A stretch of DNA of 64,000 bases. Source: an uncultured Actinomycetes bacterium (GTDB lineage Bacteria; Actinomycetota; Thermoleophilia; UBA2241). Location: the NCBI GenBank assembly GCA_963755025.1, contig CAVWIH010000014.1:32001-96000 (forward strand). The letters run 5' to 3'. Of this stretch, positions 28,561-34,241 are shown piece by piece. The notes under the pieces are model-generated. The model worked only from the letters and a program-made list of their open reading frames with translations, was not told where the DNA came from and did not search any database. Each line of letters opens with the position of its first letter. The stretch's first letter is position 1. Position numbers and translations under genes: made by a program.

Positions 28561-29069
28561 GGCAGTCGGTCCTCTTTGCGGGCCAGCACGATGGCGCCGA
28601 TCATGGCCGCCAGCAGCACGAACGACACGAGCTCAAAGGGGAACACGTAGCCGTTGAACAGCCCGCTGGCGATGCCGGAGAGCGAGATGTTGTGCGACGT
28701 CGAGCCGTTGGGGGCCATCTTCGAGGTCACCAGGATGACGGTGATCACGACGGCCGTGGCGACCGCCAGCGGCGCGGCGAAGATGGCCTGGCGGTTGAAG
28801 AAGAAGCCGAGCTTGGTCTCGCGCTGGTCGGTCATCATGATGGCGAACAGCACGACCACCGAGATGGCGCCCACGTAGACCAGGATCTGGATGATCGCCA
28901 GCAGGCCGGCGTTCAGCAGCACGTAGGCCGCCGCCACACCCAGAAAGCAGAGGACCATGGACATGGCCGAGTGCACGACGTTGCGGAAGGCCACGACGCC
29001 GAGGCCGCAGACCAGCACCCAGACGGCCACGATGACGAACAGGACCGGATGAAAGTCGCCGTGGGGCAT
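28557..29069 (-). CDS. nuoJ: NADH-quinone oxidoreductase subunit J
   Basis: RNVVHSA, QILVYVGAISVVVLFAIMM, PFELVSFVLLAAMIGAIVLAR. Confidence 0.9.
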   Translation of the reverse strand: MPHGDFHPVLFVIVAVWVLVCGLGVVAFRNVVHSAMSMVLCFLGVAAAYVLLNAGLLAIIQILVYVGAISVVVLFAIMMTDQRETKLGFFFNRQAIFAAPLAVATAVVITVILVTSKMAPNGSTSHNISLSGIASGLFNGYVFPFELVSFVLLAAMIGAIVLARKEDRLP

Positions 29070-31555
29070 CAGTCGCCGCGCTCCATCTCGTCGAGGTCGA
29101 GGCCGTCGCCCTTGACCGGCGTCCACTGCCAGCCGTTGCCTTCGACGGCGTCGCGCACGCGCGGGTCGACGTCGGGCACGGCCGACTCGGCCAGCGCGGC
29201 CGGCCTGGCGGCGCGCACGTAGAGCGACTCCCCGGCGAGCTGGGTACGGCTGGTGCCGGCCAGCTCGAAGAAGTCGGTCTGCTCGAGGGCGCCGTAGGGG
29301 CAGACCTCGACGCATTCGCCACAGAAGATGCAGCGGCTCTCGTCTAAGTCGTAGCTCTGCAGGGCGCGCTGGTTGACCTGGATGGACCCGGTCGGGCAGG
29401 TCTCGGCGCAGCGCCCGCACGAGACGCAGCCCACGGTCTGCAACGGCAGGTTGTCGGGCGTCGAGACGATCGTGTCCCAGCCGCGGCCGATGGCGTCGTA
29501 GCAGCTCGCCCCGACCTCCATGCGGCAGACCCGCACGCAGCGCAGGCACATGATGCAGCGGTTGGGCTCGCGCATGATGAAGTCGTGACGAAAGTCGGCC
29601 GGGTAGTCGTGGGAGGCCTGCCCGTGGAACCTGTTGGCGAAGACCTCGTACTCGATGCCGTAGCGCTGCAGGTCGCAGCTGCCGTTGGCCGGGCAGTGGC
29701 AGTCGAGGCAGAGCTCGGCGCCGAGGCGCGCCTGGGCTTCGGTGAGACCCAGGTCGACCTCGTCGAAGGTCGTCGTGCGGGCGCCCAGCGCCAGCGTGGC
29801 CGTCTCGACCGGCGGCGCGGGGTGCGAGACGTCGGTGGTCATGTCGATGAACACCGGCGGTATCTCGGCCATGCGCACGACGGTGGGGTCGAGCTCGCGC
29901 CGCGCTCCGAGGGCGGCCACGAACGGCTTGGCCTGCAGCTCGGCGAGGGCGCGCGCCACCTCGCGCATGTCGAGCCCACGCAGGAACGCATCGATGCTCC
30001 AGGCGGCCTTCTTGCCCTGAGCGACGGCTTCGACCACGGTGCGCGCGCCCAGCACGACGTCGCCGCCGGCGAAGATGCGCGGGTCGTCGGTCTGGAGCGT
30101 GAGCCCGTCGACCTCGATGGTGCGGGCGGCCGTGCGCTTGACGCCCTGCTCTTCGCTCGTGCCGTCGAGCTTTGGGAAGAGCTCGGTGGCGTAAATCAGC
30201 TGGTCGCAGGCGACGACCGACGTAGGACCGGCGGGCGTGGGCTGGTAGCGGCCCTCGGCGTCGGGCGCGCCCGCGTCGGTGGGCTGCACCTCGATGCCGG
30301 TTAGCTTGTGGCCCGAGTCGGTGACGACGCGCACCGGGGCGACGAGCGAGCGCACGTGCACGCCCTCTTCTTCGGCCGCGGCGACCTCGGCCGCGGGGGC
30401 CGCCATCGCCTGACGGGGCTCGTGGCACAGCAGCGTGACCTCGCGGGCGCCCTTGCGGACCGCTATGCGACAGGCCTCGACGGCGGCGAAGCCGTCGCCG
30501 ACGACGGCCACCCTGTCGCCGACGCTGACGTCGCCGGCAAGTTCGACGTCGCCGACGAAGTCGAGCGCGGCGACCACGCCCGCGGCGTCGTCGCCGGCGA
30601 TGCCGAGGGCGGCGGAATCGAGCGCACCGAGGCCCAGGAAGACGGCGTCGTACTCAACGGTCAGGTCGTCGAGCTGGTAGTCGACGCCGAGGCGCGTGTC
30701 GCACTCGAGCTCGACCCCCATGCGCCACAGGACGTTGAGCTCCTTGTCGAGCACGGTGCGCGGCAGGCGGAAGTTGGGGATGGCGTAGCGCAGCATGCCG
30801 CCGGGCTTGGGCAGCGCCTCGAAGACCTTGACCCGATGGCCCTCGAGACGGGCGTAGAAGGCGCACGCGAGGCCGGCCGGACCGGCGCCGACGACGGCGA
30901 TCTTCTTGCCGCTGTCGGGCTTGGGCTCGACGGGCAGCAGCAGCTCGCCGGCCTGCTCGTCGTCGAGGCACTGGTCGGCCATGAAGCGGTGCAGCCGGCA
31001 GATCGTGATCGGCTGGTCGACGAGCTGGCGCCGGCAGGGCTCTTCGCACGGGTGCGTGCAGACGCGGCCGAGGATGGCCGGGAACGGCAGGTCCTCGCGC
31101 AGCTTGCGCACGCCCGACCGGTAGTCGCCGCGCGCGATGGCGTCGAGGAACTGCGGGATCTTGATATGCGTCGGGCAGGCGTCGCGGCAGGGCGGCGTGC
31201 AGAAGGAGTTGTGGTCGGACAGCAGCAGCTCGAGGTAGAGGCGCCGCATCTTGCGCACCTTCTCGGTGTCGGTGTGCACGACGATGCCGTCGGCGGCAGC
31301 CGTCGAGCAACTCGACACGGGCTTGCCCCAGCCCTCGACCTCGACCATGCACAGGCGGCAGGCCGCCGACGCCGGCAGCCGGGATTCGTAGCAGAGGGTG
31401 GGGATGTGGATGCCGACGCGCTCGGCCGCCTGCAGTATGGTCTCGCCGCGATCGCAGGTCACGTCGCGACCGTCGATGGTCAGCGCGATCTGCGAGGCGC
31501 GCACCGCGGGATGTGATGCGGCTGTAGCTTCGGGCTTGTCGTTGCGCGGCGTCAT
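29069..31555 (-). CDS. NuoG/HydA-like Fe-S subunit with an inserted GltD/NfnB-like FAD domain and a C-terminal half of NuoI
   Basis: In order: IPTLC..[8 protein letters not shown] 2Fe-2S; SDHNSFC; PCRDACP...[26 protein letters not shown]...CDLQ; [23 protein letters not shown]; then [30 protein letters not shown]. One uninterrupted ORF. Confidence 0.85.
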   Translation of the reverse strand: [828 protein letters not shown]

Positions 31556-33481: not shown

Positions 33482-34241
33482 CGGTCGACCTCGGCCCTCT
33501 GTCGGAGCTCGTTTACGAGGCCGCGCGCCCTGTCGGGCGTCATGCGGCCGTGGGTCTCGTCGTCGCCGATCCTGACCACGGGAGCGAGAGCGCACGCGCC
33601 CACGCAACTCACCGTCTGGAGCGTGAACAGCCTGTCTTTTGTGGTCTTGCCGACTTCGATGCCGAGCTCCTCGGCGAAGGCCTCGGTGATGAGCGGCGCG
33701 CCGGCGACGTGGCAGGCGGTGCCGTGGCAGACGGTGATCGACGAAGCGGCCGACCGGCGACAGCCGGAACTGGTCGTAGAAGCTGGCCACGCCGTAGAGC
33801 TGCGAGAGCGACACGCCGGTCTCGACCGAGATCTCCTCGAGGGCGAGCGCGCGGCAGGTAGCCGTAGATCTCCTGCGTGTGCTGCAGGACGGCCATGAGG
33901 CCCGTGCCGGTCTCGCGGTAGTGGTCGATGACCGGCGCGATCCGGGTGAGGTCGGGCGCCGGCTGCGAGTCGGCGCGCACCCGCTTGATGCGCGCCTCGT
34001 TCACGGCCGGCAGCGCGTGCGTCGACTGGTAGTTGACGCGGATGACCTGCACGGGGCAGTTGGTCTCGCACAGCGTGCAGGAGCGGCAGCGGGGCTCGCC
34101 CGTCGCCGGGTCGACGACCACCCGGAACAGCCCGCGGCTGCGCTCCGGGAGCTGCTCGCGCTGCTCGGGGTACTGGACCGTGATCTTGCGCTGCGGCAGG
34201 TGGCCCAGGGTGGTGCGCATGGCTTTGAGGATGCCGAGCAT
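33478..34241 (-). CDS. Fusion of the NuoI N-terminal half with NuoE/HydC (frameshifts near 33850 and 33740)
   Basis: ITVQYPEQREQLPERSRG...CRSCTLCETNCP (NuoI-N) is in frame with LMAVLQHTQEIYGYLP. Then GVASFYDQF, VCHGTACHV, SCVGACALAPV (NuoE). Confidence 0.85.

Follow-up and report, generated by a model that had tools for sequence, protein, structure and literature searches.

Among the 14 core subunits that all forms of complex I conserve, NuoI carries the two clusters linking the NADH-oxidising arm with cluster N2. What, then, has become of this subunit in a complex I operon that has no nuoI at its place? The question is raised by a stretch of DNA of 64,000 nucleotides (here called the window) from the metagenome-assembled genome (MAG) of a soil actinobacterium. 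A nuo locus lies on the minus strand of the window, in a stretch of 65-73% G+C, with the gene order nuoA-B-C-D-H, X, F, Y, nuoJ-K-L-M-N and no nuoI between H and J. The gene called X carries the N-terminal half of NuoI fused to NuoE, and Y, a NuoG-type protein, ends in the C-terminal half. We consider it probable (about 0.7) that this locus represents a conserved variant of proton-pumping complex I, in which the NuoI ferredoxin would be assembled in trans and would tie an NAD(P)H module of the Nfn/Bfu type to the quinone arm.

NuoI Is Divided between Two Fusion Proteins

X (33478..34241, minus strand), as delimited by profiles and by the intact open reading frames (ORFs) of relatives, is a fusion gene in which the N-half of NuoI is followed by a linker and by NuoE, the latter carrying PF01257. 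The NuoI half comprises residues 1-75 (34017..34241, minus strand), which read MLGILKAM...ITVQYPEQREQLPERSRG...CRSCTLCETNCP, contain a single CxxCxxCxxxCP motif and continue in frame into the start of NuoE. It consists of an N-terminal helix, a TVQYPE...PERSRG segment and the first ferredoxin motif (C52, C55, C58, C62 and P63). Family membership was judged with the NuoI model of NCBIfam (TIGR01971 / PRK05888), which has 121 positions and a curated cut-off of 113.05 bits for the whole protein. Residues 8-74 of X match its positions 2-66 at 49-52 bits; when residues 1-95 are searched alone, NuoI models stand on top with 51.8 bits, and 12 of the 13 families that match the N-half at E<=0.001 are NuoI, FpoI or NdhI models.

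Y (29069..31555, minus strand; 828 residues, intact) is identified by profiles and by alignments with Protein Data Bank (PDB) chains as a NuoG-type Fe-S protein with an inserted GltD/NfnB-like flavin adenine dinucleotide (FAD) domain. All its parts lie on the minus strand. Residues 21-119 (31199..31495) form a NuoG/HydA-type 2Fe-2S domain (Fer2_4), matched by PF13510 at 21-97 and by NuoG and HoxU models. The GltD/NfnB-like domain follows at residues 120-527 (29975..31198), with two [4Fe-4S] clusters (Fer4_20) and a FAD/NAD(P)H-binding Pyr_redox_2 fold. Residues 610-725 (29381..29728), recognised by the 9bov_A alignment and by their invariant cysteines, comprise a cysteine cluster (C616, C619, C621, C627) and then a NuoG/HydA-type ferredoxin-like domain with motif 1 (C667, 670, 673, 677) and motif 2 (C710, 713, 716, 720), to which PF22117 (Fer4_Nqo3) gives a weak match at 659-724. 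Residues 21-750 align with the solved chains 9bov_A (1.5e-163), 8oh5_C (2.5e-148) and 9n5u_A (6.6e-125), the second of which is StnC of the Stn transhydrogenase of Sporomusa ovata and the third NfnA; the model PRK12814 scores 547.7 bits over residues 21-678, under its cut-off of 916.

The alignment with 9bov_A stops at residue 750 of Y, that is, at residue 700 of a chain of 1178 residues, and the C-half of NuoI comes next. This half has been placed at Y residues 726-790 (29186..29380, minus strand), and is recognised by a YDLDESR segment, a third CxxCxxCxxxCP motif (C742, 745, 748, 752 and P753) with invariant cysteines, and FFELAG after the motif. A search with the last 107 residues of Y covers positions 68-115 of TIGR01971 and positions 101-147 of NF004537 at 47.3-47.5 bits, and these two NuoI models are the top two families for that segment. 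HMMER aligns motif 3 with CTFCGMGC of 9bov_A, and it was accordingly tried as the N7-like cluster of a molybdopterin domain; this assignment was rejected, as the spacing is CxxCxxCxxxCP and the NuoI models reach 25 residues further.

Neither X nor the tail of Y reaches the NuoI cut-off (about 50 against 113 bits each), and the two jointly cover positions 2-115 of the profile, nearly end to end. The eight cysteines of the two motifs that serve N6a and N6b in NuoI are likewise present only jointly, four in X (C52-C62) and four in Y (C742-C752). The second-best families for both pieces are FpoI, NdhI, HycF and HyfH, the NuoI homologues of related enzymes. The same complementary coverage is found in one locus from Chloroflexota and in one from f6, another family of the same class, and chance pairing is excluded because the same two half-matches recur in relatives. 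A preliminary description of this DNA had read X as starting with the NuoI N-terminus, with a single ferredoxin motif in frame into NuoE, and Y as ending, past two NuoG-type motifs, in a third one of NuoI C-terminal context. It had proposed that NuoI profiles should see only the N-half in X and only the C-half in Y, and this is what they see (positions 2-66 and 68-115, respectively); a failure of the Y C-terminus to align with NuoI, which would have spoken against it, is not the case, the top matches being NuoI models.

The N-half stands directly after nuoH and the C-half directly before nuoJ, and stop and start codons overlap at both places. The H/X junction is TGATG (34243-34239), the X/F and F/Y junctions are ATGA (33481-33478 and 31555-31552), and the Y/J junction is again TGATG (29071-29067). 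The gene order was established in the window by tblastn, and the same order A-B-C-D-H-X-F-Y-J-K-L-M-N was found with hidden Markov models (HMMs) in the intact operon of a relative of the same genus (L033). There the core of complex I is complete in one cluster by NCBIfam models (NuoA, B, C, D, H, J, K, L, M and N), with matches above the cut-offs for NuoB, D, H, K, L, M and N, and the window is colinear with it. The order without a free-standing nuoI, the four overlaps, and the coordinates and reading frames that the preliminary description had given, with X starting at 34241 and Y at 31555..29069, thus all stand, as does its statement that the fusion junctions are free of frameshifts, since neither coincides with any frame break of the window.

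Upstream, nuoH (34241..35365, minus strand; delimited by tblastn of the relatives' NuoH in three frames, by the map of insertions and deletions and by the NuoH HMM on L033) ends in a TGA (34243-34241) that overlaps the ATG of X. Downstream, nuoJ (28557..29069, minus strand; NuoJ HMM on L033) begins with an ATG (29069-29067) that overlaps the stop codon of Y. Three database proteins of 638-708 residues (P0151, P0160 and P0242) combine the Y C-terminus with a NuoJ domain (PF00499); these are perhaps genuine Y-J fusions, or else gene calls that were merged over the TGATG overlap.

Alignment with the whole NuoI that the same genome encodes elsewhere places the break in the loop between the two motifs, and it also reveals that a remnant of the strand preceding motif 2 has been kept in both halves. 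About 4.6 kb of coding sequence lies between the halves. A clean insertion of E-F-G into nuoI was set aside on account of the remnant present on both sides; because these remnants overlap, an origin of the split by duplication and complementary loss would fit better.

The Same Reciprocal Fusions in Other Genomes

Could the fusions exist in no cell, and be a chimera or an artefact of gene calling? The thought is prompted by the source, a MAG with evident base-level errors, and the distribution of the two genes bears directly on it. Residues 1-129 of X (the NuoI half, the linker and the start of NuoE) are fully matched in 20 of 41 related genomes, and 21 of the 41 have a match to the 177 C-terminal residues of Y at E<=4.5e-21; the mismatches between the two sets of genomes involve a contig end (G006) and a genome that is 74% complete (G012). 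X is a single ORF of 252-253 residues, followed by F and Y, in all nine loci fetched from the same family, and a single ORF also in five further loci of Thermoleophilia MAGs. Altogether, intact X (251-253 residues) and Y with the same ends are present in at least 20 related Thermoleophilia genomes and in many independent metagenome assemblies. Among the best 120 of 1900 X-like proteins of a large protein collection (E<=1e-10), 89-100% of X is covered at 61-92% identity, in proteins from JGI, ENA, NCBI and Logan assemblies, and the Y C-terminus is found in 231 proteins of the collection at E<=1e-8.

In a wider scan with one genome per species, the same X was met in named Thermoleophilia MAGs. 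Beyond this class, the scan found X at full length and 30-38% identity in Chloroflexota MAGs (labelled Chloroflexia, Limnocylindrales and Anaerolineaceae), where the X and Y genes are 30-43% identical overall; Y ends in the NuoI C-half in four of the five Chloroflexota loci, and in the fifth the contig ends inside Y. The family f6 and one MAG labelled 'Actinomycetes' have a further arrangement, in which one ORF of 602-617 residues joins the NuoI N-half, the helical part of NuoE (with no 2Fe-2S domain) and the NuoF core (L041 8063-9871, L042 11383-13191 and L043 11389-13197, minus strand; L130 6001-7851, plus strand).

An assembly chimera would not leave behind the same architecture in dozens of assemblies that are independent of each other, stem from several sources and two phyla and include short-read NODE contigs; nor can single-base errors make matching in-frame fusions at both ends. 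On the evidence of the intact loci in relatives and in the protein collection, an artefact is refuted, and its chances are practically nil. The preliminary description had pointed to related genomes as the place to look for the same reciprocal fusions and had named misassembly as a way in which it could fail; the fusions are found across two phyla, and the independent assemblies lend misassembly no support. The gene architecture, its conservation and the identity of its parts are thus matters of direct observation. In databases, X goes by the name 'NADH-quinone oxidoreductase subunit E' and Y by 'FAD-dependent oxidoreductase' or 'formate dehydrogenase major subunit', with 'formate hydrogenlyase subunit 6/NuoI' added in a few JGI names; as pipelines name X 'NuoE' and Y in this way, metabolic reconstructions would score the carriers as NuoI-less.

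The residues expected to bind clusters have been retained throughout. In 30 sequences from two phyla, C52, C55, C58, C62 and P63 of X are invariant, and 22 sequences from two phyla show no variation either in the 12 cysteines of the motifs of Y or in the four of the cluster before them. The ratio of non-synonymous to synonymous substitution rates (dN/dS), estimated for the window against five relatives (five pairwise values for each half), is 0.16-0.27 for the N-half and 0.24-0.48 for the C-half, a range by which both NuoI halves are judged to be under purifying selection. When five genomes were searched with NuoI models, two (G011 and G013) were seen to have a whole NuoI besides the halves. 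The other three (G020, G024 and G029), which are 98-100% complete, gave no match at the NuoI cut-off, and the halves are their best matches. To judge from these genomes, the two-piece form is in places the only complex I of its host.

Frame Breaks in the Window's Copy

The copy in the window is itself not continuous. Alignment of 24.5 kb with two relatives revealed 15 uncompensated single-base insertions, at about 24133, 25258, 26191, 26459, 26850, 28249, 33331, 33738, 33848, 34539, 34986, 35302, 35465, 35648 and 36180. They cluster in nuoD, nuoH, X and the start of F on one side and in nuoL, nuoM and nuoN on the other, with none in Y, in most of F or in the compared flanking genes (about 5.5 kb). 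All 15 events are insertions, with no deletion among them, and none lies in a homopolymer. The frame of nuoH is broken near 35302, 34986 and 34539. In the NuoE part of X, the insertions near 33848 and 33738 shift the reading through three frames before the true stop at 33478, and because of them the last ~80 residues of the 210-residue ORF at 33609-34241 are out of frame, a point that the preliminary description had missed. One further insertion near 33331 affects the start of F.

These breaks can be read in two ways. The operon could be decaying in this genome, the insertions being real mutations and the cell relying on a second, canonical nuo operon. Such an operon does exist on the same contig, with nuoF at C14:135468 and a whole nuoI (G000:C14:140550-140915, 156 bits) about 75 kb off, and the 15 uncompensated insertions between 24133 and 36180 are clustered in the operon while the flanks are clean. 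Natural decay would nevertheless hardly produce insertions only, none of them in homopolymers, and the in-frame pieces are free of premature stops and 88-93% identical to the relatives. Breaks of the same kind are also found elsewhere in the genome: the uvrA model is matched in five consecutive pieces in different frames on another contig (G000:C32:3887-6609), and a nuoF paralogue on C37 is in two pieces. The secA gene on C34 is whole; models of rpoB and gyrA found no match in this MAG, which is rated 84% complete and consists of 39 contigs and 3.4 Mb, and the housekeeping comparison therefore comprises uvrA and secA only.

Because uvrA and the nuoF paralogue are likewise broken, the frame breaks are read as patchy, genome-wide errors, and such errors of assembly are most likely their cause, at odds of about 4 to 1. 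The window's own copy would accordingly contain base-level assembly errors (the likelier case) or have been broken recently, and its being a pseudo-operon is unlikely. The preliminary description had held that an intact nuoI elsewhere, together with relaxed selection on the halves, would count against it; the first of these is indeed present, and the second is contradicted by the low dN/dS of the halves against their relatives (0.16-0.48). Decay would in any case touch this single copy and not the architecture.

The NuoF Homologue and Its Variants

Between the two fusion genes lies F (31552..33481, minus strand), a NuoF of the BfuB/StnB/HydB type (nuoF_fam, 449.5 bits). In the window it has an N-terminal thioredoxin-like 2Fe-2S domain, a core with flavin mononucleotide (FMN) and N3, and a C-terminal 2[4Fe-4S] ferredoxin (about 31603-31770); 2Fe-2S ferredoxin models match at residues 3-53 and Fer4 at 511-556. 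F with both of these extra domains and X with PF01257 are the features of the Bfu family (Schut 2022, Kumar 2023), with its BfuB and 2Fe-2S-bearing BfuC, that the window displays, and by the sequence of its components the module is of the Bfu/Stn/NfnABC-like kind.

These features are not shared by all forms. F of Chloroflexota (L058 6813-8147, L060 6810-8174) is a bare NuoF core of 445-455 residues that lacks the Bfu extra domains; the X and Y of this form keep the split NuoI and the GltD domain despite the plain F. The f6 form has neither the 2Fe-2S part of NuoE nor the ferredoxin tail. Common to every form are the split NuoI, the helical domain of NuoE, the NuoF core and a GltD-bearing Y. 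A separate locus of the same genus (L040, G010:C5:151000-170900, at 9355-13627 on the minus strand) has a very divergent F, with 35% identity, a very long branch and an odd composition; its Y is shorter (745 residues) and appears to carry the ferredoxin tail of F.

A Proposed Ferredoxin Assembly in trans

In 2[4Fe-4S] ferredoxin folds, each cluster takes three cysteines from one motif and the fourth from the other, and the place of NuoI in complex I is between NuoB and the Fe-S domain of NuoG. In an alignment with solved proteins of the StnC/NfnA type, motifs 1 and 2 of Y fall residue by residue on the ferredoxin-like domain, and they would pair by homology to these structures. Motif 3 of Y and the motif of X are therefore left without a partner in their own chains, and together they should form one NuoI-type 2[4Fe-4S] domain, with two inter-chain clusters of 3 + 1 cysteines each. 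The reconstituted domain would sit on NuoB/D/H and hand electrons that arrive along the Fe-S chain of Y over to N2, from which they would reach menaquinone, NADH entering at the FMN in F and NADPH at the FAD in Y. As a consequence of the two fusions, the input module would be covalently tied to the quinone arm at two points. In the Thermoleophilia form, whose F bears the additional domains typical of bifurcating Bfu enzymes, a third soluble partner may be ferredoxin.

Besides the frame breaks and the second operon of the window's genome, several observations weigh against this reading. Only some 25-30 residues link the NuoI N-half to NuoE in X. NuoE lies at the far tip of canonical complex I, and with such a linker the input module must have a geometry other than that of the textbooks. 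Motifs 2 and 3 of Y are only 21 residues apart, a spacing like that of clostridial ferredoxins, and the Pfam matches of Fer4_7 and Fer4_9 span residues 710-756 and thus cover both motifs. Nor do single-chain predictions by AlphaFold2 show a folded half-domain. For X (the 253-residue protein of a relative, with an alignment of 13 rows) the NuoE part is confident, and residues 1-45 and 48-78 have a predicted local distance difference test (pLDDT) score below 50; for Y (22 rows) all of residues 618-828 are below 50. These models are uninformative on the half-domains because the region of Y with solved homologues fails equally.

Assembly in trans and the set of substrates are what we infer from the sequences, and the sole modelling result on the assembly is weak. 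A complex prediction with Y 655-828, X 1-95 and four 4Fe-4S clusters scored 0.52 (0.54, 0.46 and 0.52 in the individual runs), with the best of three controls at 0.00, agreement of the runs in at least 71% of contacts and a pLDDT of the partner of at least 53. The mark applied is reached by 58 of 80 solved complexes and by two of 110 mismatched pairs; passes at 0.60 or under comprise seven of the 80 solved complexes and both passing mismatches, which makes the support weak. Many structures of the fold to which the halves belong have been solved, and mere likeness to them may account for the pass. The prediction gave no interface, and it does not discriminate between two possible pairings of the motifs.

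The second pairing would join motifs 2 and 3 of Y into a complete NuoI-like 2[4Fe-4S] domain, in which case NuoI has moved into Y, and the X motif either completes motif 1 of Y or anchors X to NuoH. The short spacing and the Fer4_7 and Fer4_9 matches over residues 710-756 suit such a domain. So do several NuoI, HycF and HyfH models whose matches to the f6 protein extend over the two motifs, and MAFFT places motif 2 of the f6 and Chloroflexota proteins on motif 1 of NuoI. Against these stand the residue-by-residue match of motifs 1 and 2, with their eight invariant cysteines, to the StnC/NfnA ferredoxin-like domain, the four cysteines of X that are invariant in 30 sequences and would be needless in a mere anchor, and the distribution of the NuoI-specific segments, the N-terminal one on X and the C-terminal one on Y. 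We regard this pairing as improbable. Even with it, one ferredoxin-like domain would still be completed in trans by X.

A Paralogous Cluster Linked to Pyruvate Oxidoreductase

In several genomes of the same Thermoleophilia family, a paralogous cluster PorC-PorD-PorA-X'-F'-Y' has been found (L131, G013:C3:403000-421000, about 6168-14302, minus strand; L134, G020:C1, 5961-13489; also L132 and L133). X' (274 residues) begins with the half-ferredoxin motif, continues as NuoE, covers positions 19-62 of the NuoI profile (32-35 bits) and is without the first ~25 residues of NuoI. Y' (1061 residues) is NfnA/StnC-like, with the same three motifs and, behind them, a fused PorB. In the NuoF core tree, the three Por-linked F' rows nest within the nuo-linked Thermoleophilia clade with support of 99/95 and 100/100, a placement to be read with the midpoint root and the several flagged long branches of this tree in mind; because F' nests inside that clade, the Por-linked form looks derived. 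The tree has 29 rows and comprises fetched loci only, the window's own F being absent; each row needed a single high-scoring segment pair of >330 residues, and of 31 loci L053 and L133 were dropped (frameshifted F), while L135 duplicates L045. The window's genome has six NuoF-like loci (C10, two on C14, C21 and two on C37); at the one on C10, NuoE is plain and F falls within the nuo-linked group. 

The pair of half-motifs thus travels together and joins the module to two different partners. More tentatively, and with the chances rather against it, the two-piece ferredoxin can be seen as a portable, self-assembling connector by which a Bfu module for NADH and NADPH (in Thermoleophilia also for ferredoxin) plugs into either the quinone arm of complex I or pyruvate:ferredoxin oxidoreductase; in the former case it would yield a pump fed by both pyridine nucleotides, with two covalent tethers and two shared clusters. 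Such a pump would possibly be confurcating, with electrons from NAD(P)H and reduced ferredoxin passing to menaquinone.

Comparison with Known Systems

A split of NuoI throughout a lineage, if true, would mean that a ferredoxin fold can be built from two chains in a working respiratory enzyme. It would also offer a natural case for how the N-module joined the ancestral 11-subunit enzyme. The GltD domain puts a predicted NADPH site on a quinone-reducing proton pump, and the Bfu-type NuoF raises the question of whether electron confurcation is coupled to proton pumping, which has so far only been predicted for 'Nuo-Bfu'. The kind of enzyme is already known; what appears to be new is the split and reciprocally fused NuoI, present in two phyla. 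The preliminary description knew of no account of this architecture, and no description of a split NuoI or of these fusions was found in published full texts, supplements not covered, nor in the main text of the Bfu survey, where the words NuoI, fused and fusion are absent (Schut et al. 2022, PMC9304861).

Like NuoI/Nqo9/TYKY (NDUFS8), X and Y taken together have both CxxCxxCxxxCP motifs, the NuoI-specific N- and C-terminal segments and the place between nuoH and nuoJ. Unlike NuoI, they are not one polypeptide, and each half is fused to another subunit.

The input module resembles the soluble StnABC/NfnABC enzymes, electron-bifurcating transhydrogenases of the Bfu type (PDB 8oh5, 9n5u and 9bov). 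The counterpart of Y is StnC/NfnA, that of F is StnB, and StnA is represented by the NuoE part of X. Y has the hallmark of StnC/NfnA, namely NuoG-type Fe-S domains with an inserted GltD FAD/NADPH domain; parts of the Stn structure report describe NADPH as being oxidised at the GltD FAD of StnC (PMC10482914). The large subunit of the soluble enzymes (963-1178 residues) ends in a molybdopterin-oxidoreductase-like domain after the ferredoxin-like one, whereas Y (828 residues) has the NuoI C-half in its place. X in turn gains the NuoI N-half with respect to StnA, and the X-F-Y genes are embedded in a nuo operon.

The main text of Schut et al. 2022 (PMC9304861) predicts, under the name Nuo-Bfu, a complex I cluster with a Bfu-type E/F/G module in its middle, a 14-subunit A-N cluster of Deferribacteres, Proteobacteria, Planctomycetes and Nitrospirae. 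Set against that text, the present form is distinct in that its BfuA belongs to the Nfn/Stn type and contains a GltD domain, its NuoI is divided, it occurs in Thermoleophilia and Chloroflexota, and in Chloroflexota and f6 its NuoF is a plain core that lacks the Bfu extras. The same main text predicts Por-Bfu, a pyruvate oxidoreductase linked to BfuABC (PMC9304861), which the Por-linked X'-F'-Y' cluster of Thermoleophilia resembles; the partner of that cluster is pyruvate:ferredoxin oxidoreductase, and not the quinone arm as in the complex I form. Finally, passages of Degli Esposti 2015 (PMC4758237) describe mbx-like operons of Thermotoga and proteobacteria in which NuoI has been replaced by a GltD-related flavoprotein. 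As portrayed there, these operons resemble the present locus in having, where NuoI would stand in a complex-I-like membrane enzyme, a NAD(P)H flavoprotein of the GltD type; here, in contrast, both NuoI motifs have been kept and spread over two fusion proteins, and homologues of NuoE and NuoF are present.

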